Positions 9,027 to 32,000 of a stretch of DNA of 32,000 nucleotides are shown here, one piece after another; the stretch's first letter is position 1, and each line of letters opens with the position of its first letter. A model generated the notes under the pieces. That model worked only from the letters and a program-made list of their open reading frames with translations. It did no database searches and had not been told where the DNA came from. The stretch is from Nitrosopumilaceae archaeon. GTDB lineage: Archaea; Thermoproteota; Nitrososphaeria; Nitrososphaerales; Nitrosopumilaceae. The position numbers and the translations under genes are program-made. The stretch is taken from the NCBI GenBank assembly GCA_035631875.1, contig DASQHX010000009.1, positions 269,281 to 301,280 on the forward strand, read 5' to 3'.

Positions 9027-10121
9027 ATGGAAAGTGAGGCAAAACTAAAGGGCAAACTTAAGACTGGTTTTACAACTGGAACTTGTGCAACTGCTGGTGC
9101 AAAAGCAGGAATTTTAGCAATCCTAAATCAAAAAAAAATTGATGTCGTGGATGTAACTTTGCCTAAAAAATCTAAGATTCAAATTAAAATCTTAAGTTGT
9201 CAATTTGATAAACATAGTGCAAAATGTACAGTCATAAAAGATGGTGGGGATGATCCAGACGTTACACATGGTGCAGAAATAATTACGCATGTTTCACTTA
9301 TAGATAAACCAAATCAGATAGAAATTGATGGCGGTGATGGTGTAGGACGAGTAACAAAGCCAGGTCTTGGTCTTGAAATAAATTCTGCAGCAATAAATCC
9401 AACTCCAAAAAAGATGATAATTGAAAACATTCAGGAAATCGGAAAAGAAATTCTTGAAAAAAATGGTGTAAATGTTATTGTCTCAGTTCCAAGGGGAAAG
9501 GAGCTTGCAACAAAAACGGATAATCCAAGACTTGGAATTATTGGTGGCATCTCAATTTTAGGTACAAGCGGAATTGTGATACCATATTCTACTGCTTCTT
9601 TTGCAGCTTCAATCAGACAGAGTCTTGATGTTACAATCGCAATGGGAAATAATATTGTTGTATTAACAACAGGTGGAAGAAGCGAAGATTTTTCAAGAGA
9701 AATAATAAAACTTCCTGATCATTGTTTTATACAAATGGGAGATTTTTCAGGATATACACTTCAACAATGTGCAAAACGACCAATCAAAAAAGCATATGTT
9801 GCAGGTTTTATTGGAAAACTAACAAAGATGGCAATGGGCGTAAAACAAACTCATGTCAAAGGTTCCAAAATTGACATGAAGTTTCTGTCAGATCTTGCGC
9901 AAAAATGTAATGCAAAAAATGAAACCATCGAGGAAGTAAAAAAAGCAAACACTGCAAGACATGTCTATGAAATTGTCATGAAAGAAAACATTGTAGATTT
10001 TTTTGATGCTGTTTGCTTGGAAGTTTACAATCAACTAAGAAAACATTCTGAAGCCAAGTTTGAACTTGATGTCATAATGTTTGATTTTAATGGTAAAATA
10101 ATAGGAAGGTTTCCTAGATAG
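9027..10121 (+). CDS. cbiD: Cobalt-precorrin-5B (C1)-methyltransferase CbiD
   Basis: The N-terminal LKTGFTTGTCATAGAKAG and GGISILGTSGIVIPYS are typical of CbiD. 364 aa. Confidence 0.9.
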   Translation: MESEAKLKGKLKTGFTTGTCATAGAKAGILAILNQKKIDVVDVTLPKKSKIQIKILSCQFDKHSAKCTVIKDGGDDPDVTHGAEIITHVSLIDKPNQIEIDGGDGVGRVTKPGLGLEINSAAINPTPKKMIIENIQEIGKEILEKNGVNVIVSVPRGKELATKTDNPRLGIIGGISILGTSGIVIPYSTASFAASIRQSLDVTIAMGNNIVVLTTGGRSEDFSREIIKLPDHCFIQMGDFSGYTLQQCAKRPIKKAYVAGFIGKLTKMAMGVKQTHVKGSKIDMKFLSDLAQKCNAKNETIEEVKKANTARHVYEIVMKENIVDFFDAVCLEVYNQLRKHSEAKFELDVIMFDFNGKIIGRFPR

Positions 10122-10156
10122 TAACAAATATCTTTAGTTCTAAAAAAATTCAATGC

Positions 10157-11221
10157 ATGGAAAAAGTTGCCATATTAGCAATTACAAAAAACGGAATTTC
10201 AATTGCCTTATCGCTAAAAAAACAATTTCCTTCATGGAAAATTTTTGCACCATCTAAATTTTCAAATAATGACTCACAAATTGACTGGTTCGAGGACTCT
10301 ACTACCGCAAAAATAGGAGATCTCTTCAAAACTCATGAAGCTCTCATATGCATATTCTCACTTGGTGCAGTGATTAGACTAGTCTCACCTCATATGAAAG
10401 ACAAAAAGACAGATCCTGCAGTAGTTGTCATTGATGACACTGGCAAGTTTGCAATAAGCACCCTTTCAGGACATTTAGGAGGAGCAAACCAGCTTACAGA
10501 AGATATTGCCAAGATTTTGAGTGCAACACCTGTCATCACTACTGCTGCAGATGTCAACAAAACGATTGCAGTTGATTTGGTTGGAAAAGAATTTGGCTGG
10601 AAGATAGATGATGATTCTACTGTAACAAGAGTAAGTGCATTTATGGTAAATGAAGAAAAAATTGGAGTCTATCAGGATGCGGGCGAAAAGGATTGGTGGA
10701 CTCCAAAAAAAGAATTTCCAAAGAATGTAACTATTTACAATAGTTTTGAAGAGTTGAGAAATTCTAATTCTAAAGGATATTTGATAATTTCTGATAAAGA
10801 AATAGAAGACAGGGAATTGTTAAAAAACTCTGTAGTATACAGACCAAAGACTTTGGTTGTTGGAGTAGGCCTACATTGGGACACTAGTAAAGACACAATC
10901 AAAGAAGGAGTAGAATTTTGTATGAAAAAATTTAATCTAAGCCCAAAATCAATTGTAAGATTTTCATCAATAAAAAAAGAATCAGATGTAGTAGGATTAC
11001 AAGAACTGGCAAAGGAATGGAATATTCCAGTAGATTATTTTGAAAAAGAGCAGCTTGCCCAAATTGCCATACCAAACCCATCAGAAACTGTGCAAGCCTT
11101 TGAGGGCACTCCAAGTGTTTCAGAAGCTTCAGCACTACGAAGCTCTGGCGGAAAACTAGTAATTGAAAAGCAGAAATTTCCACCAAACTTAACTGTAGCA
11201 ATAGCGAGAATCACAAAATGA
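10157..11221 (+). CDS. cbiG: Cobalt-precorrin-5A hydrolase CbiG
   Basis: Three-part CbiG layout: N-terminal IFSLGAVIRLVSPH, mid VVVIDDTGKFAISTLSGHLGGAN, C-terminal VGVG...SIKKESDVVGLQELA and VSEASAL. Adjacent to cbiD. Confidence 0.85.
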   Translation: MEKVAILAITKNGISIALSLKKQFPSWKIFAPSKFSNNDSQIDWFEDSTTAKIGDLFKTHEALICIFSLGAVIRLVSPHMKDKKTDPAVVVIDDTGKFAISTLSGHLGGANQLTEDIAKILSATPVITTAADVNKTIAVDLVGKEFGWKIDDDSTVTRVSAFMVNEEKIGVYQDAGEKDWWTPKKEFPKNVTIYNSFEELRNSNSKGYLIISDKEIEDRELLKNSVVYRPKTLVVGVGLHWDTSKDTIKEGVEFCMKKFNLSPKSIVRFSSIKKESDVVGLQELAKEWNIPVDYFEKEQLAQIAIPNPSETVQAFEGTPSVSEASALRSSGGKLVIEKQKFPPNLTVAIARITK

Positions 11222-11964
11222 AAAGAGGATTATTACTAATAGATAGAGGTAGTAGAGAAGACGAGGTAAAAGACGAATTAAGATACATTTGCTCTAAAGC
11301 CAAAGAATCTGGGGGTTACCAATTCTCAGATTATTGCTTTTTGGAGGTGGTTCCACCCTTTATTGAGGAAGGTATGGAAAATTGCTTCAAACAAGACATA
11401 GATGCCCTGACAATTGTTCCATATTTTTTGTACCCTGGAAAAAAAGTCAAACTAGCAGTAAACAAGGCAATTGAAATGATATCAAAAAGTAAAATGAAGA
11501 TCAAAATTGCAAAACCAATCACCTTACACAAATCTTTGCCAGATATTGTACATGCTAAAGTTGATGATATTATTACAAAAAACAAGATCACGTTTTCAAG
11601 AAAAGAGATGGATTTGTTACTTATTGGTCATGGAAGCAAGGATCCTAATGCAAAAACCTCTTTGCAATATGTTGTTGACGGGTTACAAGATTCATACCGA
11701 AATGTATCTCTCTGTTGGCTAGAAATAGAAGAGCCCAACATCAAACAAGGAATAGATATCTGTGCTAAAAACAATCCAAATGTATTGGTAATTGTTCCAT
11801 ATTTTTTGCATAGAGGTGCACATGTCAAACGAGATATATATGAAGATCTAAATCCAGCAATGGAAAAATCTGGAATTAAAAATATTTTCATAACAAAACA
11901 TCTTGGTACAGATGTTAAATTGATAGATCTAGTTATAGAAAGAGCAAAGGAAGTTGAGAAATGA
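11218..11964 (+). CDS. cbiX: Sirohydrochlorin cobaltochelatase CbiX, internally duplicated (two-domain) form
   Basis: Two homologous halves: LLLIDRGS...IVPYFLYPGKKV and LLLIGHGS...IVPYFLHRGAHV. ATGA start/stop overlaps with cbiG and cbiC. Confidence 0.85.
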   Translation: MKRGLLLIDRGSREDEVKDELRYICSKAKESGGYQFSDYCFLEVVPPFIEEGMENCFKQDIDALTIVPYFLYPGKKVKLAVNKAIEMISKSKMKIKIAKPITLHKSLPDIVHAKVDDIITKNKITFSRKEMDLLLIGHGSKDPNAKTSLQYVVDGLQDSYRNVSLCWLEIEEPNIKQGIDICAKNNPNVLVIVPYFLHRGAHVKRDIYEDLNPAMEKSGIKNIFITKHLGTDVKLIDLVIERAKEVEK

Positions 11965-12599
11965 TTACTCAGAAGGGCCAATCAATTGAGGACAAGAGCA
12001 TGGAAATAATTGAAAACGAGATAGGCTCTCATTCATATTCAAAAGACGAATGGCCAATAGTTAGAAGAGTAATTCATTCTACTGCAGATTTTGATTTTGC
12101 ACGACAAAACATGATTGTTTTTCATAAAAATTCCATATCAAGCGGCATTAATGCCTTGAAAAATGGCTGTAATATCATAGTAGATGTAAATGGTGTCATT
12201 GGTGGACTAAACAAGGAAAACCTGAAGGAGTTTGGAAACAAGGCAATTTGTAACATATCCGAGCCAAAAATTGTAGAAGAGGCAAAGAAACTCAACAAGA
12301 CACGTGCACAGACCTCTATGCGAATGGCTGCCTCAGAAATGAACGGAGGGGTGATTGCAATAGGCAATGCTCCCACAGCACTAATAGAAGTGATTCAGAT
12401 GATAAAGGAGAACGTAACACATCCAGCTCTTGTAATTGGTATTCCAGTTGGTTTTGTATGTGCAGTAGAATCAAAAGAAGAACTTCAAACAATTGACATA
12501 CCATACATTACAAACAAGGGTCGTAAGGGAGGAAGTCCTTGTGCGTCTGCAATAGTTAATGCGTTGTTCAAGATCGTAAAAGAGAAAACAAAAGGCTAA
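11961..12599 (+). CDS. cbiC: Cobalt-precorrin-8 methylmutase CbiC
   Basis: HSTADFDFA, IAIGNAPTAL and GFVCAVESKE motifs. 212 aa. Confidence 0.9.
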   Translation: MITQKGQSIEDKSMEIIENEIGSHSYSKDEWPIVRRVIHSTADFDFARQNMIVFHKNSISSGINALKNGCNIIVDVNGVIGGLNKENLKEFGNKAICNISEPKIVEEAKKLNKTRAQTSMRMAASEMNGGVIAIGNAPTALIEVIQMIKENVTHPALVIGIPVGFVCAVESKEELQTIDIPYITNKGRKGGSPCASAIVNALFKIVKEKTKG

Positions 12600-12702
12600 C
12601 GAGTTTATCGATAAAGAGTAAAAATGGTTTACCCCCACTTTACTCGTAGAAACATGCTGTTGTCGTAAAACTTTAGGTTAAGTAAAAGATCAACAAGATA
12701 TT

Positions 12703-13254
12703 ATGAAATACGGTTACGCTTATGCATGTATTTCGATATTGATTGTAATGATTGGTACTTTTTTAATTTTTCAATTGGAATCAACAAGGCAAACAACTAG
12801 TTTGAATGAAATCTATAAACCAACATTATCAGATGATCAGGTTACACAAATTATAAGATCTGACTTGTCCAAGCATTTGCCAAATCTTACTAAGGTAATT
12901 ATCGAAGGTAAAGATCCAATTCCAAATAATCTTGATTATCCAAAACATCCACTTCGTTTGTGGTATATTACACCAAATGGCACTCAATTTCTAATAAATA
13001 ATACAAATTATTCTGTAGTATGGAAATGTGTTCCCGAAATTAACTTCTGTAATATTCGTAGTCCATTAGTCCTTCAAGCTTCAAGTGGTAGATTAGTATA
13101 CCTAGCAGATTTAAGCTGGTACACTACGGAAACTCATGGCAATGGCTTCCCAACATATTATTTGATAGATGCGAATGATGGAGAGGTACTTTTCTCAACC
13201 TTACTGGAATCTGCAAATAGCACTAAGCAAATGATAATCGAATACAGACCATGA
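12703..13254 (+). CDS. Hypothetical membrane-anchored, probably extracellular and N-glycosylated protein
   Basis: N-terminal TM anchor ACISILIVMIGTFLIFQL. Five N-x-S/T sequons (NLT, NGT, NNT, NYS, NST) and a Cys pair (WKCVPEINFC). The C-terminal YLIDANDGEVL resembles the end of PepSY-type domains, a weak match. No recognised family. Confidence 0.5.
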   Translation: MKYGYAYACISILIVMIGTFLIFQLESTRQTTSLNEIYKPTLSDDQVTQIIRSDLSKHLPNLTKVIIEGKDPIPNNLDYPKHPLRLWYITPNGTQFLINNTNYSVVWKCVPEINFCNIRSPLVLQASSGRLVYLADLSWYTTETHGNGFPTYYLIDANDGEVLFSTLLESANSTKQMIIEYRP

Positions 13255-13301
13255 CTCTCAAAGGTAAGAAGAACCACTACAACGTAAAATTCCTTCACAA
13301 A

Positions 13302-14657
13302 TTATCTTTTGGAAAATTTGATACAGTTTTGAACAAAATTTCTTGCAATGCGAGGTTGCGCAAAGTGCATGTGCATGTATGAAGCTAATGTGTTGTACTG
13401 CATTAAACCGTCTTTTTGGTTTTTTATACCAATACCAATGGAAAGATCATAGGCAAACTTGGAGTCCTTTGATACTGATTCTAGCTCAGAAAAATGAAAC
13501 TCATGTCCTTGTATGATATTTGAGGTCTTTGCAATAAGACAATCTTTTGTTATTCTAGCCTTGGTATAGTTTAGTTTAAGTTTTTTTTGCATCTTTGTAG
13601 TGGCATCAAAAAGTCCCACCATCTTGAATTTCTTTGAACCATAATCAATGGATCGGGTAAGATACATCAATCCACCACATTCTGCATAGATTGGCATTCC
13701 AGATTCTGCAAGAGTCTTGATATTTTTTTGCATCCTAGAGTTTTTCTCAAGGGCACTGCCTATCACTTCTGGAAAGCCACCACCAATATAGATTCCATCA
13801 CATTCAGGCATCTTTGAATCAGATACAGGACTGAAAAATACTATCTTTGATCCCTCTTTTTTTAGGGCATCCAAATTATCCTGGTAGTAAAAATTGAAAG
13901 ATTGATCCAGTGCGACTGCAATTGTGGTTTTCTGTTTTGGATTTTTTTCTTTAGGAATCAAACCAAAAGGTGGAACTTTGTTCCCAATCTGAATAATTTT
14001 CTTAACATCAATAAAACCTGACATTGCTTTTGCTATCTTTGATATCTTTGATTGAAGTTCTTTTTGCTCAGAGACTGGGATTAATCCAAGATGTCTTGAT
14101 TCCATGAGAAATTCAGGATTACGTGGAATCACACCAACGATAGGAATGTTCAATGAAGAAAGTGCCTGTCTGCAAAGATCTTCATGCTTTTTGCTGCCAA
14201 TCTTGTTTAGAATAAAACCAGAAATTCTAGAATTTTTATGAAATTTCGTAAACCCAAGTGCAGTTGCAGCAATTGATCGTGCAGTCTTGCTTGCATCCAA
14301 AACAAGAATTACTGGAGTTTTTAAAATAGATGCTACGTGATGTGTGCTGGAATAGTTCGAGTCGCCAGAAAATCCATCATAATAACCCATCACGCCCTCA
14401 ATTACAGAAAAGTCAGAATCAAAATTTTTTACAAAGCTCTTAACAATTCCACTGGAACCCATAAGCCAAGGATCCAGGTTTCGTGCAGGTCTGTCAGATA
14501 CAGAACTAAGATAACTAGGATCTATAAAGTCAGGCCCAACCTTGAATGATTGTACAGAATATCCCTTTTTTTTGATTCCATGAATTATTGCACAGCTAAT
14601 TGAAGTCTTGCCAACACCACTTGTAGTTCCAGCAAGCACAATCCTTGGTATTTTCAA
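13302..14657 (-). CDS. cbiA: Cobyrinate a,c-diamide synthase CbiA/CobB (glutamine amidotransferase)
   Basis: P-loop AGTTSGVGKTS. C-terminal GATase with IYAECGGLMYL and GHEFH. 451 aa. TTG start. Confidence 0.9.
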   Translation of the reverse strand: MKIPRIVLAGTTSGVGKTSISCAIIHGIKKKGYSVQSFKVGPDFIDPSYLSSVSDRPARNLDPWLMGSSGIVKSFVKNFDSDFSVIEGVMGYYDGFSGDSNYSSTHHVASILKTPVILVLDASKTARSIAATALGFTKFHKNSRISGFILNKIGSKKHEDLCRQALSSLNIPIVGVIPRNPEFLMESRHLGLIPVSEQKELQSKISKIAKAMSGFIDVKKIIQIGNKVPPFGLIPKEKNPKQKTTIAVALDQSFNFYYQDNLDALKKEGSKIVFFSPVSDSKMPECDGIYIGGGFPEVIGSALEKNSRMQKNIKTLAESGMPIYAECGGLMYLTRSIDYGSKKFKMVGLFDATTKMQKKLKLNYTKARITKDCLIAKTSNIIQGHEFHFSELESVSKDSKFAYDLSIGIGIKNQKDGLMQYNTLASYMHMHFAQPRIARNFVQNCIKFSKR

Positions 14658-14675
14658 TTCTCAACAATATTACGG

Positions 14676-14690
14676 AATTTTATTTAAATG
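14676..14690 (-). promoter_or_regulatory. TATA-like element in the 38-nt gap upstream of cbiA
   Basis: The minus strand reads CATTTAAATAAAATT, centred about 26 nt upstream of the cbiA TTG at 14657. Confidence 0.3.
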
Positions 14691-14695
14691 GATGT

Positions 14696-15916
14696 TTACT
14701 GTTCAGACCTTATACTTTTTACCATATCAAATAGCTGCCTGACAGCTAATTTTGGATGGTGCGTTGCAAGCTTGATCAAATTACTCATACTAAAGTCAGC
14801 TTTTACAAAATCCAAAAATTCTTCCGCTGAGAGCTCTTGGATTATTGCAATTTCCTTGTCCCATTCTTCATCAGATAGACCTAACCATCTGGTTTGTACT
14901 TTGACTGCAGCTTTTATCTTGGAACCTATTGCCTTTTTCCAGTTTTCTTCATATGGTTTTAGGGATTCCTTTGATGTGTCATTTTTTAAAACTGCTTCTG
15001 CACCTACCTGACCTGCTACTCTTCCAAATTCTATTGCATATCGAATTCCTTCTAAGACAAGAGGATTTGCCTGCCCAGCTGCATCACCAACCAGTATAAG
15101 GTTATCTGCAATAGTGGTATGTGTTAATCCTTCATTTGGAATTAATCCATAATGAAATTCTATTGGAACAATTCTACCAAGATTTTCTATTGGACCTGGC
15201 TTTTTGTCAATTAGTTCAAGCAGTCTTTGGGTTGGATCAATTTGTGATTCTGGTTTTCCAACACCAACGCCAATTCTTACCTTGTTTTTTCCCAATGGAA
15301 ATATCCAAGCATATCCGGCTGGAGAATATTGTTGTCCAACCATGAGATGCCACGTTTCTGGATCAATGTTATCAACATATGCTTCAAATTCTGCACCAAC
15401 ACCAAATCTTTTCCATTGTGATACAGTACCTCTATTTTTTCCAATTACTGAATAAAATCCGCTTGCATCTATTACAAGTTTTGAATGAAAAACAAGATCA
15501 TCTTTTATTGATGTAGCCTTGACTCCCACCAATTTTCCATTCTCCTCAAGAATATTAGTCACATTAGTTCTAACAAAAATATCTGCACCTGCATTTGCTG
15601 CTTGATATGCAAGAAACTGATAAGTTTTCCTTACATCCAAGACTGCAGCTTGAGGCTCTGTTCCTTTTATTGTTACACGGTTATTTGGTGAATAAAATGA
15701 ATAATTTCTAATCGGGTTATAACAATCAGAAGGAATACCAAAAGATTTTGCTTCTTTTATCCAAGTAACACCGCTTGTTCTAACTGAGTGTCCTATTGCT
15801 TCTTCTCGCTCAAGTACAGCTACACGTACATCTTTTTTTGCAGCTGACCATGCTGCAGAAAGACCAGCAGGACCACCTCCTACTATAACAATATCAAAAT
15901 CATATTCTCTTGTCAA
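14696..15916 (-). CDS. Geranylgeranyl reductase family FAD-dependent oxidoreductase
   Basis: FAD-binding motif DIVIVGGGPAGLSAA, then VAVLERE and LILVGDAAGQANPLVLEGI (the GDAAG motif of the GGR/FixC family). It has the about 90-aa C-terminal helical extension seen in archaeal GGRs. TTG start. Confidence 0.8.
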   Translation of the reverse strand: MTREYDFDIVIVGGGPAGLSAAWSAAKKDVRVAVLEREEAIGHSVRTSGVTWIKEAKSFGIPSDCYNPIRNYSFYSPNNRVTIKGTEPQAAVLDVRKTYQFLAYQAANAGADIFVRTNVTNILEENGKLVGVKATSIKDDLVFHSKLVIDASGFYSVIGKNRGTVSQWKRFGVGAEFEAYVDNIDPETWHLMVGQQYSPAGYAWIFPLGKNKVRIGVGVGKPESQIDPTQRLLELIDKKPGPIENLGRIVPIEFHYGLIPNEGLTHTTIADNLILVGDAAGQANPLVLEGIRYAIEFGRVAGQVGAEAVLKNDTSKESLKPYEENWKKAIGSKIKAAVKVQTRWLGLSDEEWDKEIAIIQELSAEEFLDFVKADFSMSNLIKLATHHPKLAVRQLFDMVKSIRSEQ

Positions 15917-16024
15917 ACAATCAACATTTTTTCTTTGATGATTATAAACTACACATTTTCTGTTGTAAAATTATAGACAGTTTTGATCCGAATCTTTTTA
16001 GTTCACACTTGAAACCAAAAATCG

Positions 16025-16558
16025 ATGGGAAAAGATGGATTTGTTATAGTATACACAGGTAAAGGAAAGGGTAAAACAACGGCTGCGCTTGGAATGGCCT
16101 TACGGGCTGTGGGATATAATCACAAAATTTGCATGATCCAATTTATCAAAGGTTCTTGGCATTATGGCGAGATGACTTCATCAAAGAGACTAGAACCAGA
16201 ATTTGAGTTAACTGCCATAGGAAAGGGTTTTGTAGGAATTATGGATGATAAAAGCCCAATCGAAGATCATAAAAAAATTTCTGACGAGGCTCTTCGCATA
16301 GCAAAAGAAAAGATTCAATCAGAAAAATATGATATCATTATACTTGATGAGATAAACTATGCAATCAATCTAAATCTAGTAAAATTAGAAGATGTTTTAG
16401 ATTTAATAAAAATTAAACCACCTAAGTTGAATTTAGTTCTTACTGGAAATTACGCTAGAGATGAAATTATAGAAGTTGCAGATCTTGTTACAGAAATGAG
16501 AGAAATAAAACATCCTTTCAAAGCAGGTATTCGAGCCAAGAAAGGTATAGATTTCTAA
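16025..16558 (+). CDS. cobA: Cob(I)yrinic acid a,c-diamide adenosyltransferase (CobA/CobO/BtuR type)
   Basis: YTGKGKGKTTAALGMALRA, IQFIKGSWHYGE, ILDEINYA, TGNYA. 177 aa. Confidence 0.9.
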   Translation: MGKDGFVIVYTGKGKGKTTAALGMALRAVGYNHKICMIQFIKGSWHYGEMTSSKRLEPEFELTAIGKGFVGIMDDKSPIEDHKKISDEALRIAKEKIQSEKYDIIILDEINYAINLNLVKLEDVLDLIKIKPPKLNLVLTGNYARDEIIEVADLVTEMREIKHPFKAGIRAKKGIDF

Positions 16559-17568: not shown

Positions 17569-20391
17569 CTAACCAGTTGAGGATATGTTTGTAGAAGATG
17601 TTATAGATTGTGTTGCTTGAGATTGAATTATAACTTTACTCATACGTGCTTCCTCAGGATCTATTGGTTGGTCTGTAGCTGGATCTGTTTTAATCGCTCC
17701 AATTTTATCAACTACATCTTGTCCAGAAATCACCTGGCCAAATATCGTATATTTACCATCTAAATTCGGAGCATCGCCAAGCATTATGAAAAATTGAGAG
17801 CTTGCACTATCAATGCTAGGACCGCGTGCCATTGATACCATGTATTTTACGTGTTTAAGAGTACTAAATTCAGGTGGAATTGTATATCCCGCGTCACCTG
17901 TTCCCCAGGTATCACGTGAACCATTTTTTGTATTTGGGTCACCACCTTGAATAACAAAACCTGGAATTATTCTGTGGAATAATGTTCCATCATAAAATCC
18001 GGATTTTGCAAGTTTTTCAAAGTTTGCTACAGTTTTTGGAGCAACATCATCTCTGAATTTGATGACAATGTTTCCATATTTTGTAGAAATGACACCTACA
18101 TCGCTTGTTGGATTTACACTTGTGGGATTTACAGTTGTAGAATTAATTTGAGGTGTTATCTTTTGATTTGTATTACTTGTTTGCAGCACATAGTTTGGAT
18201 TTACTTGATATAGTAAAACTCCTGAAACAATTCCAGAACTATTGCTATTAAGACTTGGTGATGAGTAGACAAGCTTTAATGGACCATTACCATCTACTGG
18301 GTATTTGATCGTTTTAGAATAAACACCAATGTATCCAGATTGATAAGTGGCTGATTGTACATGAGTATTTGGATCAAAATAAGTCACTGGTGTAAATGGA
18401 AACATTTTTCCTAACAAAGTGTTTTGCCAAAAATAATCGGTTGGCGTAAATTGATCATCTTGAAGAAACTTTGACGAATCTTCCCCTGCAATTCTCATAA
18501 ACCACTGTTTTTTACTTTCATCTCCCCCGCCACCTAGTACGTAAAGAGTTTGTCCGTTTGAAGAAAATTCTTGTCCTACTACATACACAAGAACATAGTT
18601 AGCACCCCAATCATGAAGCATTTTCCATGCTTCATCAGGGGAGCTTAGGAATATTTGTGCAATTTTTGCAATTACGCCTGTTGATAAAGTTGCATTATCT
18701 GCAAGTGTTGTTCTTCCACCTAATGTTTGAATCCAATAACCATAATCCCACCATGATGCTATAACCGAGTTTGGTGGAGTATTATTTTTTATCCAATCCA
18801 AAGTGGCTGGCCAGTCATTAGTAGAAATTGCATAATTAGAACCACCATTAAGAATGGTAGGAGGAGATTTAGTTACTGAGATCCAGTTTCCGTTTGCTGG
18901 ATAAATAGTTGGTACCAAAAGTAAAGCCACTATAATGACTACATAAGAGATACTTGCAAACATTCCTAAAGCATAGGTTGATTTTTTACTTTGTGTTGTT
19001 ACTTTCTTTGAATTATCAGATGATTTTCCTTGTGTTTGTTTCTTTGAGATTTCAGGTGGTTTTCCTAGTGTTCGTTTCTTTAAGATTTCAGATGTGATTA
19101 CAGCTAATCCAATTGATGCAAGTATAATGACAGAAGTAGCAGTTAGAAGATCTAATCTTGCAAAAGTTCCTCCTGCATAAGCTCCAACAATGCCAATTAT
19201 TAGAGCAAAGATAGTCATTTCATTTTTGATTCCTATTGGTAAAGAATTTTGATTCTCAGATCTTTTTCTAAAAATAAGCCAAATTCCCAAGCCAGCAAAT
19301 AACATCAGAGTTGAAAAATAGGTAAAGTTTTGAGTAAGATTTGGCGTAGCATGTTCTGCAACAGAATCAACTAAAGCATCCTGAGATGTAAGGAATGGAT
19401 TTATTGCATTAAGATAACGAAAGCTTGGTGCATGAAGAATATTTGATGAAATTATTGCAACTCCAGCTATAACAGATCCTCCTAAAATTGCCAAACTATT
19501 ACGTAATGCTGTTCCTTCCCTGCTAAATTTCTGAATAAATATCATTATAACAAGAAATATTGTGGGTCCGATAAGTGCAAATCCACGTACTCCTAACACA
19601 AAACTGATTCCAGGTCTTGCAAATCCACCAGAAACTGCCAATGTCACAGCAACAAAAAGAGGTATGGCCCATAGCAAGAATTTGTGATCTTTTCTAAAAA
19701 ATGGAAGAGCAATAATGAATAATGCTAACGGCATGAGGAAGAATTCAATGCCACCCCATGAAGCAAAACCAATAGCTAAAAACAAGCCTCCACCAATTAA
19801 TTTTCCAAAAGCAATCTTGCGGTTTTTTGATTTTAATCCACTAAGAAACAGGTACAGTCCTAGAAGACCATAAAAAAGTCCAAGCGGTTCTGATTTGAAC
19901 CATCCTATTGTGCCTCTTACTATTATTGGTGGAGATATTGCAAAAAATAGCGATGCAAAAAGACCAGCTGTTGTACCTCCCATAACTCGTACAAGCGCAA
20001 ATACGATAATGGCTGTAAGTGAACCAAAAACAACTGGAAATATTATTGTAAAATCATAAAGACTGGAACCAGCACCAAAAATTTTGTATAAAAATGCTGC
20101 TGTAAAATGCAAAGGAGCTTGAGATGTTGAATAGACATCTCTACCAGTTGGGTACCAGCTCATGGTATCATGCCAGTGAACGTAGGCATTTACACCGTGA
20201 TCTAAAAGATATTGTGTTGCTCTAAAGTTAAAGAAAGGATCAAATTCATTTAATTGAAAACCATAGTCGGCTGCTTGTGAACGTACCATAACAGAAATTG
20301 AAAATGAAATTGCAAGAATTCCAATGATCAGAAGATGATGTAGATGAAACTCAAAAGTTCCAACTTTAAATAATTTGAGGTTTGAAATCAA
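17569..20391 (-). CDS. aglB: AglB/STT3 oligosaccharyltransferase fused to a C-terminal cyclophilin-type peptidyl-prolyl isomerase
   Basis: Multi-TM N-terminal region with EFDPFFNFR in the first external loop, and WWDYGYW (18733-18753). The C-terminal approx. 160 aa (approx. 17623-18102) carries FHRIIPGFVIQGGD, SQFFI and LDGKYTIFGQV, which mark a cyclophilin. One uninterrupted 940-codon ORF. Confidence 0.9.
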   Translation of the reverse strand: MISNLKLFKVGTFEFHLHHLLIIGILAISFSISVMVRSQAADYGFQLNEFDPFFNFRATQYLLDHGVNAYVHWHDTMSWYPTGRDVYSTSQAPLHFTAAFLYKIFGAGSSLYDFTIIFPVVFGSLTAIIVFALVRVMGGTTAGLFASLFFAISPPIIVRGTIGWFKSEPLGLFYGLLGLYLFLSGLKSKNRKIAFGKLIGGGLFLAIGFASWGGIEFFLMPLALFIIALPFFRKDHKFLLWAIPLFVAVTLAVSGGFARPGISFVLGVRGFALIGPTIFLVIMIFIQKFSREGTALRNSLAILGGSVIAGVAIISSNILHAPSFRYLNAINPFLTSQDALVDSVAEHATPNLTQNFTYFSTLMLFAGLGIWLIFRKRSENQNSLPIGIKNEMTIFALIIGIVGAYAGGTFARLDLLTATSVIILASIGLAVITSEILKKRTLGKPPEISKKQTQGKSSDNSKKVTTQSKKSTYALGMFASISYVVIIVALLLVPTIYPANGNWISVTKSPPTILNGGSNYAISTNDWPATLDWIKNNTPPNSVIASWWDYGYWIQTLGGRTTLADNATLSTGVIAKIAQIFLSSPDEAWKMLHDWGANYVLVYVVGQEFSSNGQTLYVLGGGGDESKKQWFMRIAGEDSSKFLQDDQFTPTDYFWQNTLLGKMFPFTPVTYFDPNTHVQSATYQSGYIGVYSKTIKYPVDGNGPLKLVYSSPSLNSNSSGIVSGVLLYQVNPNYVLQTSNTNQKITPQINSTTVNPTSVNPTSDVGVISTKYGNIVIKFRDDVAPKTVANFEKLAKSGFYDGTLFHRIIPGFVIQGGDPNTKNGSRDTWGTGDAGYTIPPEFSTLKHVKYMVSMARGPSIDSASSQFFIMLGDAPNLDGKYTIFGQVISGQDVVDKIGAIKTDPATDQPIDPEEARMSKVIIQSQATQSITSSTNISSTG
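18106..18135 (-). repeat. 15-nt tandem duplication in the AglB-cyclophilin linker
   Basis: TGTTGGATTTACACT / TGTGGGATTTACAGT (13/15 identical) encodes the VNPTS-VNPTS part of the Thr/Asn/Pro/Ser-rich linker. Confidence 0.8.
19020..19091 (-). repeat. 36-nt (12-codon) tandem duplication inside aglB
   Basis: 19020-19055 and 19056-19091 are identical at 31/36 positions. They encode EILKKRTLGKPP / EISKKQTQGKSS in a Lys-rich loop before the last TM helix. Confidence 0.9.
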
Positions 20392-27429: not shown

Positions 27430-27948
27430 ATGAGGCCAATGACTAATGAACACGAGGATCCTTTTATAAAAATAACTGCTTTAATTGGCGGTGACGAATA
27501 TCTAAAAGTCGCACGTTCTCTTTTGAATACGGAAGATGCTACAGATGAAGAAATTGCAAGTTCTACCGGTCTTAGAATTAACATAGTAAGAAAGGTGCTG
27601 TACGATCTTTTTGGAAAAGCTCTAATAACTGGCATTAGAGTGAAGGACGAGAAAAAAGGCTGGTTTGTTTACAGGTGGAGAGCAAGAAAAGATGAGGTTG
27701 ATAATTTTATTGAAAATCAGAAAAAGAAAATCGTTGAGAGATTGCAACAAAGACTAGATTATGAAAACTCGGCTGAATTCTATCATTGTGGAACAGAAGA
27801 TTGTCAAAAGTTGACATTTGAGAAGGCGTTGGATCTATCTTTTAAATGTCCAACATGCGGAAAGCTTGTAAACATAACTAAAAATGAAAAGCTGAAGAAA
27901 TCATTACAAGCTAAAGTAGATCAACTACGAGAAGATCTTAAACATTAA
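27430..27948 (+). CDS. tfe: Transcription factor E (TFE alpha)
   Basis: Winged-helix segment EEIASSTGLRINIVRKVLYDLFGKALI...GWFVYRWR, then a Zn ribbon YHCGTEDC...FKCPTCG. 172 aa. Confidence 0.8.
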   Translation: MRPMTNEHEDPFIKITALIGGDEYLKVARSLLNTEDATDEEIASSTGLRINIVRKVLYDLFGKALITGIRVKDEKKGWFVYRWRARKDEVDNFIENQKKKIVERLQQRLDYENSAEFYHCGTEDCQKLTFEKALDLSFKCPTCGKLVNITKNEKLKKSLQAKVDQLREDLKH

Positions 27949-28598
27949 ATTGTATAATGTAATACAAGTTCATTTTTCATTCTACTGATTTTCTTTAGTG
28001 TTAACAAAGGTGCATTTGAAATTTTATCAGATCCTTTTCCTTGAAATAACGAAATTGCATTACTACCTCCTAGAACGTACGGAGTAATTGTAACAATGAT
28101 CTCATCAACAAACCCACCTTTTATGAAAGACCAATTAGTTAGTCCACCTCCTTCTACAAGAAGACTCTTTATGTTCTTCTTTTTTAAGATGTGTAATAGT
28201 TTTTTAAGATTAATTTTATTTTGTCCACATTTTATTACATCAAGTCCTTCTCTTTCTAAACGAATAATATTTTTTTGAGTTATTTTTTTTGATACTGCTA
28301 TTATTGTCGGGATTGTTTTACAAGTTTTAATTATTTTTGAAGTGGACTTTATTGAGCCCGTAGAATCCAAAATTATACGTATGGGATTCTTTCCTTTCAC
28401 ATGCTTTACTGTCAATAGGGGATCATCAATTACCACAGTATGTTTTCCTATGAGTATTGCATCTACACTTGCCCTAAGCTTGTGAACTCGAATCAGATCT
28501 TCTTTTGAAGAGAGTTTAGAGTTACCTGTTCTTGTTGCTATTTTTCCATCCATACTCATTGCCGCACTAAGTATTACACGTGGTCTAGATTTTACCAT
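27945..28598 (-). CDS. arfC: 2,5-diamino-6-ribosylamino-4(3H)-pyrimidinone 5'-phosphate reductase (archaeal ArfC / RibD C-terminal-domain type)
   Basis: RPRVILSAAMSMDGKIATRTGNSKLSS, RVHKLRASVDAILIGKHTVVIDDPLLTV, LLVEGGGLTNWSF. 217 aa. Confidence 0.85.
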   Translation of the reverse strand: MVKSRPRVILSAAMSMDGKIATRTGNSKLSSKEDLIRVHKLRASVDAILIGKHTVVIDDPLLTVKHVKGKNPIRIILDSTGSIKSTSKIIKTCKTIPTIIAVSKKITQKNIIRLEREGLDVIKCGQNKINLKKLLHILKKKNIKSLLVEGGGLTNWSFIKGGFVDEIIVTITPYVLGGSNAISLFQGKGSDKISNAPLLTLKKISRMKNELVLHYTI

Positions 28599-29778
28599 CT
28601 ACTATTTTGCCTCCAAACATTATTGCTTTTATGGTTGTTTCAGATGCTCTATGCACAATAGAAGCATGAGGATTATGCATTGGTTCTAAATCAATAGCAT
28701 GTTTATTGATAAAAATGCAATCAGCCAAGCTGTTAGATTGGATGGTACCCATGTTCTTTTGTCTAAGCATTTTTGCGGCATTTACCGTAGCCATTTTGAG
28801 TATAGATTTCGGATCTAGTCTAGTTTCTTGTAATCCCATAGAGACTTTCCAGAGATAGTCCATTTCTCTAAACATGTCAGGCGAGTTTATCATCACATTA
28901 TCTGTTCCTATGGTTAAATTGCAACCACTTTTCATCATCAGATTCACGTCAGGAATTCCTTCAGCAAGTGCAGCATTTGCACGTGGACACACAACAATGC
29001 TGGCTTCATTTTTTGATGCAAGTATTAGATCTTTTTTTGATGCATGTGTCATATGAACTAGAAAATTCGGTTTAAGCAATAAAGCACGTTGAGTTTCAGT
29101 TTTTGCAGTTATCTTTTTAGAAATCATACCGCTTTCTAATGTTTCAGCTGAGTGAATAGCCCTAATTTTTGACATTTGAGAATAAAATTTTAATACAGAA
29201 TCACTAAACTCATTGGGACCACTTACACCAATTCCATCACATTTCTTTAATAGATCGCTAAGCTCCATCTTTTTTAATTCGGGTAATAAAGTATTTTTTT
29301 TAATTGATTTTAAATCTTGGTAGTAATTTATTCTGCCAAGAATTATGGATCTAATTGGAAGTCCTTTGATCGCATTCCGTAAAAGTTCAATTCCATCTAA
29401 ATCCCCTTCTCTAAAATCAACAAAAGTTGTAATTCCCTTTTTTATCATTGAAATGCAGGAATTTCTGATAAAACTTGCTAGATGTGATGTTGTAGAATTT
29501 GTCAGAATTTTTTGTTTAATACCTATAATTGGGTGAATTTTTTCTTCTACTCCAAAATCTAGACCAATATCTTTTCCTATTGAATCACCAACATGAGTAT
29601 GTGCATTAATAAATCCAGGAATCATGAGTAGTCCTTCACAATCATAGACGTCTTCTTTTTTGTCTGGTTTTAGGTTAGTGCCTATTGCTTTTACAAATTG
29701 GCCAGAAATTCGAATATTTGTACTATTAATGTAATCTAAATCATTTCCGTAAAGAATACTAACATTTTTTATCAGCAT
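28585..29778 (-). CDS. Amidohydrolase-superfamily metallo-hydrolase of the deaminase/chlorohydrolase type; specific function unassigned
   Basis: PGFINAHTH (H60, H62), IRAIHSAET (H209, E212), VHMTH (H242/H245), IGTDN (D293). 397 aa. Its start overlaps the arfA stop by 7 nt, and its stop overlaps the arfC start by 14 nt. Confidence 0.85.
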   Translation of the reverse strand: MLIKNVSILYGNDLDYINSTNIRISGQFVKAIGTNLKPDKKEDVYDCEGLLMIPGFINAHTHVGDSIGKDIGLDFGVEEKIHPIIGIKQKILTNSTTSHLASFIRNSCISMIKKGITTFVDFREGDLDGIELLRNAIKGLPIRSIILGRINYYQDLKSIKKNTLLPELKKMELSDLLKKCDGIGVSGPNEFSDSVLKFYSQMSKIRAIHSAETLESGMISKKITAKTETQRALLLKPNFLVHMTHASKKDLILASKNEASIVVCPRANAALAEGIPDVNLMMKSGCNLTIGTDNVMINSPDMFREMDYLWKVSMGLQETRLDPKSILKMATVNAAKMLRQKNMGTIQSNSLADCIFINKHAIDLEPMHNPHASIVHRASETTIKAIMFGGKIVDGKI

Positions 29779-30524
29779 GTTAGTTCAAGTACTCGTTGCT
29801 GATTTTTACCGGAATCTCTGAGTTCTCTAATAGTATCAAGAGATTTTGTTGCAAGTTTAGCAGCTTCTCGTGCAGTATTTGCAGTTCCAATTCCACAGTT
29901 TAATGCAATACCATGTTTTTCTTCCATCAAATTCAAGAATTTTACAGCATAATCCTTTCCATCACCTGAAGTAACTATCATAAAGTTGTCCCCACCCATA
30001 AAGAATGTAAGGCAGTTTTTTGTTAAGAAAAATTCTGACATTTCAGAATATAATTTAAACATAAGCGATGAAATCTCATACGGTGATTTTTTTGCTGAAA
30101 TGGATGTAGAACCATCTACATCCATATGCATTATCTGCACTAATTGTTCTGCCTTACCATCTACATAACCAAAAATGTTATGTTCCTTCTCTAAGATTAT
30201 TTTAGATTTTCTTGCTTTGTCTGCATTTAGATTAGCTTCAAATGGAGAATCGCCATATCCTATAGTCATAGAAAGTTGTAGATCAAATGATTTTGCCAAT
30301 TTTTTTTGAATTTCAATATGATCATCTAGAGACAAACCATTTGTAACTGCAAAAAGCTCATCAAATCTATTAGAAAATACAAGACAGTTTTTTTCTGAAA
30401 AAAGGTTTTGTATTTCGTTATAAATGGAAGATTGAAGCATCTGTAATTTGTGTTCTCTATCGCTGCCCAAGGTAAGTGTCCACGGACCATATCCTGTGAT
30501 TTTGATTATGGTAAGTTGGATCAT
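29772..30524 (-). CDS. arfA: GTP cyclohydrolase III (ArfA, MJ0145 family)
   Basis: MIQLTIIKITGYGPWTLTLGSDREHKLQMLQSSIY closely parallels the ArfA N-terminus (MIQITV.QI.NYGPWT.TP.PRRE..LQ.LQSRLY). FFMGGDNFM and GIGTANTAREA are also present. 250 aa. Confidence 0.85.
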   Translation of the reverse strand: MIQLTIIKITGYGPWTLTLGSDREHKLQMLQSSIYNEIQNLFSEKNCLVFSNRFDELFAVTNGLSLDDHIEIQKKLAKSFDLQLSMTIGYGDSPFEANLNADKARKSKIILEKEHNIFGYVDGKAEQLVQIMHMDVDGSTSISAKKSPYEISSLMFKLYSEMSEFFLTKNCLTFFMGGDNFMIVTSGDGKDYAVKFLNLMEEKHGIALNCGIGTANTAREAAKLATKSLDTIRELRDSGKNQQRVLELTC

Positions 30525-30525
30525 C

Positions 30526-30936
30526 TCATATCTTCCTTAACTGTTCAGCTATCTTTTCTACAGCTTCTACTGCTCTCTCTGCTACAGGTCTTATTCGTGC
30601 CTGTGCTTGCCTATCTGACATGCCTGGGCCTGTTATACCTAAAGTTACTGGTTTTTGGTATTTTATAGAAAGATCGGTTATGGCTCTAACCGTAGCATTT
30701 GTAATAAGTTCATCATGTTTTGTTTGTCCTTTTATTACGGCTCCAAGTGTAACTACTGCATCTACTTCCTTTTTTTTCAACAAGGAATCAATTACAATTG
30801 GCATATCAAATACGCCCGGAACTCTGCAAGTGAATTTTATATTTAGTTTGAGATCTTTTGCTTTTTCAACTGCTACATCAAGCATTTTGGAAGTAATTTC
30901 ATCATTAAATTCTGAAACAACAATTGCAATGTTCAA
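30526..30936 (-). CDS. ribH: 6,7-dimethyl-8-ribityllumazine synthase
   Basis: IAIVVSEFNDEIT, VPGVFDMP, LGAVIKGQTKHDELI. 136 aa. Confidence 0.9.
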   Translation of the reverse strand: MNIAIVVSEFNDEITSKMLDVAVEKAKDLKLNIKFTCRVPGVFDMPIVIDSLLKKKEVDAVVTLGAVIKGQTKHDELITNATVRAITDLSIKYQKPVTLGITGPGMSDRQAQARIRPVAERAVEAVEKIAEQLRKI

Positions 30937-30938
30937 AG

Positions 30939-31619
30939 TTAGTGCTCCTTAGTAAATTTTACAAGCTCATTACCATCAAAATAAGGAATTGTATTTTCTT
31001 TTGCATATTTTTTGGCTTTTTCAATTGAAAGCGCTGTATGTGTTTCAGAATCAAGCATTTCACATATTGCTGCAGCAGGACATAAACCAGCAAGATTAGT
31101 CATATAGATGGACATTTCAGTATGACCTAACCTATCTGATAACAATCTTTCCGATGCAATCAAAAGAGGCACATGACCTGGTGTCTTAAATGAAGAAATA
31201 AAAATTTCTTTTTTGTTTCCATTTGTATTTTTGTAAAGATTTGCCATTTCGTTTATGGTTAACGCTCTATCACGATCCGTTATACCAGTATATGTTTGTG
31301 TATGATTTATAGAGATAGAAAAAGATGGCTTGTCACCGTATGGTGCAGTTCCCATAATCATTTTTTTTGATTGATTATCTATATTTTGTGCATTAGAAAG
31401 TATATCATGCATATAATTTAGTCCAAGAGTTTTTGCAAAAGAATGATCTATGGATAAGCATATCAGACCACCAGCATCTTGACGCATTCTTGAGATATGT
31501 TCTGGTGTCACAAATTCTGCTGCAACTACCATATCTACCTCATTTTCACGCTTGTTTGCATCATGAAGTAAAACGAACCCACCTTTACGTAGGGATGAAA
31601 TTGCCTCTTCAAAGGACAT
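30939..31619 (-). CDS. ribB: 3,4-dihydroxy-2-butanone 4-phosphate synthase
   Basis: EAISSLRKGGFVLLHDANKRENEVDMVVAAEFVTPEHISRMRQDAGGLICLSI and GHTEMSIYM. I start at the ATG at 31619 (MSFEEAIS...). The 19-codon hydrophobic extension in the track ORF (to 31676) looks spurious. Confidence 0.9.
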   Translation of the reverse strand: MSFEEAISSLRKGGFVLLHDANKRENEVDMVVAAEFVTPEHISRMRQDAGGLICLSIDHSFAKTLGLNYMHDILSNAQNIDNQSKKMIMGTAPYGDKPSFSISINHTQTYTGITDRDRALTINEMANLYKNTNGNKKEIFISSFKTPGHVPLLIASERLLSDRLGHTEMSIYMTNLAGLCPAAAICEMLDSETHTALSIEKAKKYAKENTIPYFDGNELVKFTKEH

Positions 31620-31691
31620 AGTTAAGAAGCTTGTTGTAATGATTATAAATCTTACTACAAAAGTGGTTAGTACCATGAAAGTAGTAAACAG

Positions 31692-32000
31692 TTAATCTTT
31701 AGAAATTACGTATTTTCCTAGTATGTCAGTTTCAATATTAACTTTATCGCCAATTTTTTTTGAACCAAGGTTTGTGATTTTCAGTGTATGTGGAATTATA
31801 CAAATAGAAATTTTATTTTTGAGCACATCAACAAGTGTCAGGCTTATCCCATCAATTGTAATTGATCCTTTTTTTACTACAAATTTAGCTAAGTCTTTTG
31901 GAAGTTCAATCCAGAATTTGATTTCATTTGACAGTTTTTCTATTTTTATAATTTTACCAGTACCATCAATATGTCCAAGCACAAAATGGCCTTCCATTCT
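31692..32000 (-). CDS. ribE: Riboflavin synthase, bacterial/eukaryotic lumazine-binding-repeat type, C-terminal part (gene continues beyond window end)
   Basis: HFVLGHIDGTGKIIKIE...KGSITIDGISLTLVDV...ICIIPHTLKITNLG is the second lumazine-binding repeat. The reading frame is open to the window edge. Confidence 0.8.
   Translation of the reverse strand, partial: RMEGHFVLGHIDGTGKIIKIEKLSNEIKFWIELPKDLAKFVVKKGSITIDGISLTLVDVLKNKISICIIPHTLKITNLGSKKIGDKVNIETDILGKYVISKD

Follow-up and report, generated by a model that had tools for sequence, protein, structure and literature searches.

The window analysed here, a stretch of 32,000 nucleotides from a Nitrosopumilaceae archaeon, contains six consecutive minus-strand open reading frames (ORFs) in the order ribE-ribB-ribH-arfA-amidohydrolase-arfC. 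The genes and the two overlaps between them are as follows.

31692..32000, minus strand: ribE, riboflavin synthase of the bacterial/eukaryotic Lum_binding type (Pfam Lum_binding; only the C-terminal half lies in the window)
30939..31676, minus strand: ribB, DHBP synthase (Pfam DHBP_synthase; TIGR00506, 208 bits against a cutoff of 177)
30526..30936, minus strand: ribH, lumazine synthase (Pfam DMRL_synthase; TIGR00114, 129 bits against a cutoff of 85)
29772..30524, minus strand: arfA, GTP cyclohydrolase III/IIa family (Pfam GCH_III, 176 bits, 7e-52)
28585..29778, minus strand: amidohydrolase of 397 aa, cog0402-type, MJ0699 ortholog by sequence (Pfam Amidohydro_1, 8e-39; NF005552)
27945..28598, minus strand: arfC, 2,5-diamino-6-ribosylamino-4(3H)-pyrimidinone 5'-phosphate reductase (RibD_C, 2.5e-50; TIGR01508 rib_reduct_arch, 199 bits against a cutoff of 186)
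29772..29778, minus strand: 7-nt overlap of the arfA stop with the amidohydrolase start, ATGCTGA
28585..28598, minus strand: 14-nt overlap of the arfC start (ATG) with the amidohydrolase stop (TAG), ATGGTAAAATCTAG

The ORFs and their Pfam and NCBIfam families agree with the first-pass annotation, which had described six genes running head to tail, and the junctions that it gave hold at the level of coordinates and sequence: gaps of 2 nt between ribB and ribH and of 1 nt between ribH and arfA are followed by the two overlaps on either side of the amidohydrolase. The 7-nt overlap of arfA with the amidohydrolase indicates translational coupling of the two genes. The operon is headed by ribE, which on the source contig is complete at 196 aa and has a TATA-like element upstream. 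Because the RibB domain starts only at residue 20-23, the gap between ribE and ribB (15 nt as called) may exceed 15 nt, and the true start of ribB is possibly M20. ArfA scored under the NCBIfam cutoff for GTP cyclohydrolase IIa (NF002587, 167 bits against 306), and ArfC consists of the RibD_C domain alone. Outside the operon, a Pfam search of all window ORFs of 100 aa or longer found no protein of the creatininase fold or of the CMP/dCMP-deaminase fold, in line with the earlier observation that both a RibD deaminase domain and a creatininase-fold ArfB are missing from this stretch. The remainder of the window carries cobalamin-synthesis and housekeeping genes.

A search for the RbkR operator near the operon, as TTAC-N10-GTAA (Rodionova 2017), gave a single match within ribH (30735), which is at chance level. 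Two other candidate operators were rejected: relatives do not keep a TTAC-N8-GTAA sequence that lies 5' of ribE on the source contig, and a TACA-N7-TGTA palindrome over the TATA box is present in just 5 of 67 promoters.

We placed the amidohydrolase among the COG0402-type families by profile search. It passed the NCBIfam equivalog NF005552 (PRK07213) with 332.4 bits against a cutoff of 294, a margin of just 38 bits, and the match covers residues 1-387 of the protein and positions 2-376 of the 382 in the model. The next-best NCBIfam family reached 125 bits against its cutoff of 617. Scores were likewise far below the cutoffs for 5'-deoxyadenosine deaminase (DadD, PRK07228; 98.5 against 522 bits), MTA/SAH deaminase (PRK15493; 60.6 against 779 bits), guanine deaminase (TIGR02967; 65.6 against 375.4 bits) and 8-oxoguanine deaminase, so that the protein falls outside the characterised MTA/SAH and 5'-deoxyadenosine deaminase groups, membership of which had been named beforehand as counting against a role in riboflavin synthesis. 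Pfam Amidohydro_1 spans residues 52-393, and neither Pfam nor NCBIfam matched a dCMP_cyt_deam domain, a creatininase domain or ArfB (NF033501) within the protein. In NCBIfam, NF005552 is named merely 'chlorohydrolase'.

When 1.84 billion cluster representatives were searched exhaustively with HMMER, only 181 matched at E <= 1e-30, among them a protein of Methanotorris igneus. A search with this protein as the query led to orthologs from Methanococcales, one of which a cluster look-up identified as Q58110, 'Uncharacterized protein MJ0699'; a sister sequence from Methanocaldococcus carries the annotation 'Pyrimidine deaminase archaeal predicted'. MJ0699 itself scored 589 bits on NF005552 against the cutoff of 294, and a pairwise comparison with the window protein gave 36% identity (E 1e-53). 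Judged by these sequence comparisons, the Nitrosopumilaceae protein in the window is orthologous to MJ0699 of Methanocaldococcus jannaschii. A homolog from Woesebacteria scored under the NF005552 cutoff. A composition screen of the top 150 representatives found no haloarchaeal members, and we therefore take the link to the haloarchaeal protein HVO_2483 solely from Pfeiffer et al.

The active-site features of the protein, which was compared with 44 diverse family members, are as follows.

29584..29601, minus strand: HTHVGD, with the beta-1 HxH metal ligands H60 and H62 and the invariant D65
29143..29154, minus strand: HSAE, with beta-5 H209 (metal ligand) and E212 (HxxE proton shuttle)
29053..29055, minus strand: H242, the beta-6 His
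28900..28902, minus strand: D293, the beta-8 Asp (metal ligand)

H60, H62, H209, E212, H242 and D293 are invariant in all 44 sequences, and they correspond to the deaminase residue set that the first-pass annotation had picked out (HxH, HxxE, a third His and the beta-8 Asp). D65, in the motif HTHxGD, is likewise invariant; in the PDB relatives aligned with it (AtzA, 3lnp and an MTA/adenosine-type deaminase) its position is held by Met or Gln. Three basic residues (K88, R266 and R377) vary little or not at all, and would be compatible with a phosphorylated substrate.

An AlphaFold (AF2) model of the protein (pLDDT 96.1, pTM 0.94) has the (beta/alpha)8 barrel and N-terminal beta-sandwich of the cog0402, single-metal (subtype III) branch of the amidohydrolase superfamily. 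All of its Foldseek neighbours are cog0402 deaminases or chlorohydrolases (TM 0.76-0.86, 15-22% identity), including MTA/adenosine deaminases, the isocytosine deaminase Vcz/8-oxoguanine deaminase, TrzN, AtzA, TM0936 and guanine deaminases; the best match is an MTA/adenosine deaminase. We found no solved structure within the MJ0699 family.

We then asked how far the operon is conserved. A scan of a genome collection, seeded with 12 sequences, returned as its best 80 species exclusively Nitrosopumilales, in which the amidohydrolase is 53-93% identical to the window protein. Among these 80 species it adjoins arfC in every case and has arfA upstream in 78, and the complete ribE-ribB-ribH-arfA-amidohydrolase-arfC order is found wherever the contig extends far enough. 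The overlaps are equally constant: wherever alignments reached the gene termini, the arfA/amidohydrolase overlap was exactly 7 nt (68/68 loci) and the amidohydrolase/arfC overlap exactly 14 nt (74/74 loci). This arrangement is not due to chance, and the gene is embedded in the operon rather than merely adjacent to it, as had been claimed from the single locus.

Since the best 80 species were only Nitrosopumilales, we sampled wider lineages one at a time. Overlaps of 4-29 nt join the amidohydrolase and arfC in four archaeal lineages outside Nitrosopumilales, among them Nitrososphaeraceae, which have the same six-gene operon. In a GC-rich Nitrososphaerota lineage, whose amidohydrolase is 35% identical, a creatininase-fold gene comes after ribB-ribH-arfA-amidohydrolase-arfC, with 4-nt overlaps throughout. 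The product of this creatininase-fold gene scores under the ArfB model cutoff and is nearer to MftE/creatininase, as is the bacterial formamidase BrbF. In an HR06-like archaeon the order is ribE-ribB-ribH-amidohydrolase-arfC, with no arfA; the amidohydrolase overlaps arfC, and ECF-transporter S components lie on the flanks. In a Helarchaeote, an overlapping amidohydrolase-arfC pair, again without arfA, is divergent from adjoining radical-SAM/CofH-like genes, which probably encode FO synthase, an enzyme that consumes the product of the riboflavin/F420-precursor pathway. Because the amidohydrolase and arfC are kept together across these lineages, the invariant unit is the amidohydrolase plus the reductase.

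Linkage to rib genes is thus retained in Nitrosopumilales and in further lineages, while the orthologs of methanogens and other sampled Euryarchaeota are unclustered. Orthologs without rib neighbours were found in M. jannaschii, where MJ0699 adjoins the fibrillarin and Nop5 genes, in Methanobacterium, in Hydrothermarchaeota, in a Thermoplasmatales MAG and in two further lineages. Members that pass the NF005552 cutoff and lack rib linkage come from M. jannaschii, Methanobacterium and two further lineages, in one of which the gene lies beside a Bmp/ABC nucleoside-type transporter. The rib genes of methanogens are mostly scattered, and the missing linkage in these organisms is therefore weak counter-evidence.

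The first-pass annotation had proposed that the amidohydrolase is either the deaminase of archaeal riboflavin biosynthesis or a substitute for the formamide hydrolase ArfB. The first of these fits the family placement, the coupling to arfC and the type of fold and active site. Based on the NF005552 placement, the identity of MJ0699 as a published candidate, the synteny with rib genes, the invariant residues and the cog0402 fold, we conclude that the most likely role of the amidohydrolase is to deaminate the intermediate of archaeal riboflavin/F420-precursor synthesis, a reading to which we give a probability of roughly 0.7, with substrate, reaction and metal as we infer them below.

In the proposed mechanism, ArfC would reduce 2,5-diamino-6-ribosylamino-4(3H)-pyrimidinone 5'-phosphate to the ribityl form, and the amidohydrolase would hydrolyse the exocyclic 2-amino group of this ribityl 2-amino-4-oxopyrimidine, yielding 5-amino-6-ribitylamino-uracil 5'-phosphate and ammonia. 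A metal ion (Zn or Fe) bound by H60, H62, H209 and D293 would activate the attacking water, while E212 of the HxxE motif and H242 would shuttle protons in the manner of guanine and isocytosine deaminases. Those enzymes act on the 2-amino-4-oxopyrimidine substructure that is also present in the proposed substrate, a substituted isocytosine. In bacteria, RibD is a deaminase domain of the cytidine-deaminase fold, also found in fungal Rib2, fused to a reductase. The amidohydrolase would replace that domain without being homologous to it, and its translational coupling to the gene for the reductase would in archaea correspond to the bacterial fusion.

This assignment has a history. The MJ0699 family was proposed as the missing archaeal riboflavin deaminase on the basis of gene clustering (Osterman et al. 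2010), and the same candidate was restated as 'PyrD' from a genome set that included Nitrosopumilales, where it is described as a prediction without experimental test (Rodionova et al. 2017). Pfeiffer et al. 2021 (PMC8305020) named the candidate as HVO_2483, a homolog of MJ0699 (Q58110), and called for experimental confirmation. The SEED role of the MJ0699/HVO_2483 family is 'Pyrimidine deaminase archaeal predicted', and both published work and SEED annotation have carried the idea since 2010. We found no enzymology or genetics for any MJ0699-family member in the searchable literature. The earlier statement that the deaminase is unassigned in archaea is accordingly true of experimental assignment and overlooks a candidate family first proposed in 2010 and put forward again in 2017 and 2021. 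Since the prediction had already been published and no later experimental work was found, the hypothesis raised for this window is an independent rediscovery. The deaminase reading is thus well supported but already known as a published prediction; what is new here is the comparative evidence on the operon and its overlaps, which supports that prediction rather than constituting a discovery.

We considered three other readings of the locus. In the first, which we regard as unlikely, the protein is a riboflavin-pathway deaminase that acts on another substrate or in another order: on the ribosyl intermediate before reduction, as in the bacterial order, on a dephosphorylated compound, or in salvage or damage control of a related pyrimidine or pterin. 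The operon context by itself says merely that the gene is riboflavin-related, and cog0402 enzymes are often promiscuous on 2-amino-4-oxo heterocycles, as the range of Foldseek neighbours illustrates. Furthermore, the archaeal order of steps was reportedly established only in M. jannaschii extracts (Graupner 2002). The tight and widely kept coupling to arfC instead fits consecutive steps, and K88, R266 and R377 would be compatible with a substrate that retains its phosphate.

The second reading, the ArfB-substitute half of the original proposal, holds that the amidohydrolase deformylates the ArfA product (2-amino-5-formylamino-6-ribosylamino-4(3H)-pyrimidinone 5'-phosphate), perhaps in addition to deamination, where the operon is without a creatininase-fold ArfB. 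The gene order arfA-amidohydrolase-arfC does parallel the pathway order ArfA-ArfB-ArfC, and no creatininase-fold gene was found in the window or, at the 80 Nitrosopumilales loci, up to about 8 kb from the operon. A tblastn search with a creatininase-fold protein over 1.2 Mb of loci gave no match, and a database search with the same query returned mostly actinobacterial MftE-like proteins. However, M. jannaschii carries MJ0699 together with MJ0116, reported to be a biochemically characterised ArfB (Grochowski 2009), and the amidohydrolase and a creatininase-fold gene occur together in the operon of the GC-rich Nitrososphaerota lineage. In addition, arfA is missing from the HR06-like and Helarchaeota loci, in which the amidohydrolase is paired with arfC, and the only two formamidases known to act at this step (ArfB and the BrbF of bacteria) belong to the creatininase family. 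To our knowledge, the HxxE cog0402 site is known for ring-carbon deamination and dehalogenation and not for formamide hydrolysis. The coexistence with ArfB and with a creatininase-fold gene, together with the deaminase-type site, makes this reading very unlikely. That Nitrosopumilales have no creatininase-fold ArfB or BrbF at all, so that the amidohydrolase would deformylate by itself, alone or along with deamination, is hardly probable; if true, a bifunctional enzyme would stand in place of two missing steps.

The least probable reading of all is an unrelated nucleoside or purine deaminase (MTA/SAH, 5'-deoxyadenosine or guanine) hitch-hiking in the operon, to which the best Foldseek match, the member beside the Bmp/ABC transporter and one family member auto-named '5-methylthioadenosine/S-adenosylhomocysteine deaminase' would point, but against which stand the scores far under the cutoffs of all three characterised families, the family-specific Asp after HxH and an exact overlap geometry kept over 53-93% identity.

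Deamination is among the last reactions of archaeal riboflavin and F420-precursor synthesis to await an enzyme assigned by experiment. Confirmation of the MJ0699 family in this role would make it a clean non-orthologous displacement, with an amidohydrolase barrel taking the place of the cytidine-deaminase fold, and would correct the names 'chlorohydrolase' and 'MTA/SAH deaminase' carried by family members.

Several known systems can be set beside the candidate. ArfB (MJ0116) and BrbF are hydrolases of the same pathway and sometimes of the same operon, but they have the creatininase fold, catalyse a different reaction and show no similarity to the window protein. The solved cog0402 enzymes, comprising Vcz/8-oxoguanine deaminase (7ww2, 8is4), guanine deaminases (2uz9, 6ohb, 2i9u), MTA/SAH deaminases (4gbd, 4f0r, TM0936) and AtzA/TrzN, share its fold and its metal and HxxE machinery; the window protein differs from them in its low identity (15-22%), in scoring under their family cutoffs, in the family-specific D65 and in its expected ribityl-phosphate substrate. 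The closest counterpart is the MJ0699/HVO_2483 'PyrD' family, which has the same NF005552 equivalog, the same catalytic residue set and the same rib-clustering argument. Within that family, MJ0699 is 36% identical to the window protein and stands alone in the M. jannaschii genome, as its ortholog does in Methanobacterium, whereas the Nitrosopumilales gene is part of a translationally coupled six-gene operon. Finally, the N-terminal domain of bacterial RibD and fungal Rib2 carry out the 2-amino-group hydrolysis proposed here, in the case of Rib2 on the same proposed ribityl substrate. Their cytidine-deaminase fold, with its H/C-x-E...PCxxC zinc site, is unrelated to the (beta/alpha)8 barrel and HxH/H/D metal site of the window protein, whose coupling to a RibD_C reductase nevertheless mirrors the bacterial RibD fusion.

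In most Nitrosopumilus loci, a conserved BRE/TATA-like element, TCTAAAT-n-ATTTTATAC, precedes the start of ribE by ~25-35 nt, and on the source contig of the window (L086) it is found at the following position:

L086:2030-2070 (approximately window 32283-32323, just past the window end): TCTAAAT-n-ATTTTATAC element, BRE/TATA-like

The location of this element upstream of ribE marks the latter as the operon's first gene. A search for an RbkR palindrome gave no convincing match. Within the operon, the ribB open reading frame as called (window 30939-31676) carries a hydrophobic N-terminal extension of 19-22 residues ahead of the DHBP synthase domain. Translation probably begins at M20 instead, and the gap between ribE and ribB would then be ~72 nt rather than 15 nt.

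The ArfA homolog of the window (29772-30524) scored 167 against the NCBIfam GTP cyclohydrolase IIa model, well below the cutoff of 306, and showed weak similarity to mCpol and guanylate-cyclase palm domains. We class this protein as a divergent thaumarchaeal GCH III. In the Nitrosopumilaceae MAG Baj_3_bin.15 (L009:1331-2976, JBHIDF010000003.1), ribH is followed directly by the amidohydrolase gene with 48 nt between them, the sole such succession among the Nitrosopumilales loci compared, and arfA was not found across the 11-kb locus; either the gene was lost or relocated, or the MAG is misassembled. In an HR06-like archaeon (L090:3661-8376, JGI 3300020567), the operon reads ribE-ribB-ribH-amidohydrolase-arfC, without arfA; BioY/ECF_trnsprt S-component genes flank it on both sides and may encode a transporter for riboflavin or a precursor.

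The amidohydrolase also occurs in other settings. In a Helarchaeota contig (L092:3018-7262, JBQSBO010000274.1), the amidohydrolase and arfC genes overlap and are divergent from radical-SAM and CofH_C genes that are FO synthase-like, an arrangement that links the pair here with the supply of F420 precursors and not with a complete rib operon. A further family member (L083:4709-7263, Logan SRR25621637; 350 bits on NF005552, above cutoff) adjoins genes for a Bmp lipoprotein/ABC transporter and an aldehyde:ferredoxin oxidoreductase. No rib genes were seen near it, and it may be a paralog that acts on another substrate.

Elsewhere in the window, a cobalamin biosynthesis cluster (9027-16558) comprises cbiD, cbiG, cbiX, cbiC, cobyrinic acid a,c-diamide synthase and the cobA/cobO adenosyltransferase, interrupted by a geranylgeranyl-reductase-like flavoprotein gene and a 183-aa ORF (12703-13254) with no Pfam match. 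A 940-aa protein encoded on the minus strand (17569-20391) fuses an STT3/AglB oligosaccharyltransferase to a C-terminal cyclophilin-type PPIase domain; its gene has a faint HaoB_nitrify match in the precomputed annotation table.

Finally, the rib operon of a Nitrososphaerota locus (L081:7847-8608, JGI 3300045874) contains a creatininase-fold gene translationally coupled downstream of arfC. Its product fell below every NCBIfam cutoff (MftE, 128 against 172; creatininase, 83 against 235; ArfB, 23 against 180), and alongside ArfB and BrbF we consider it a candidate for a third kind of riboflavin formamidase.
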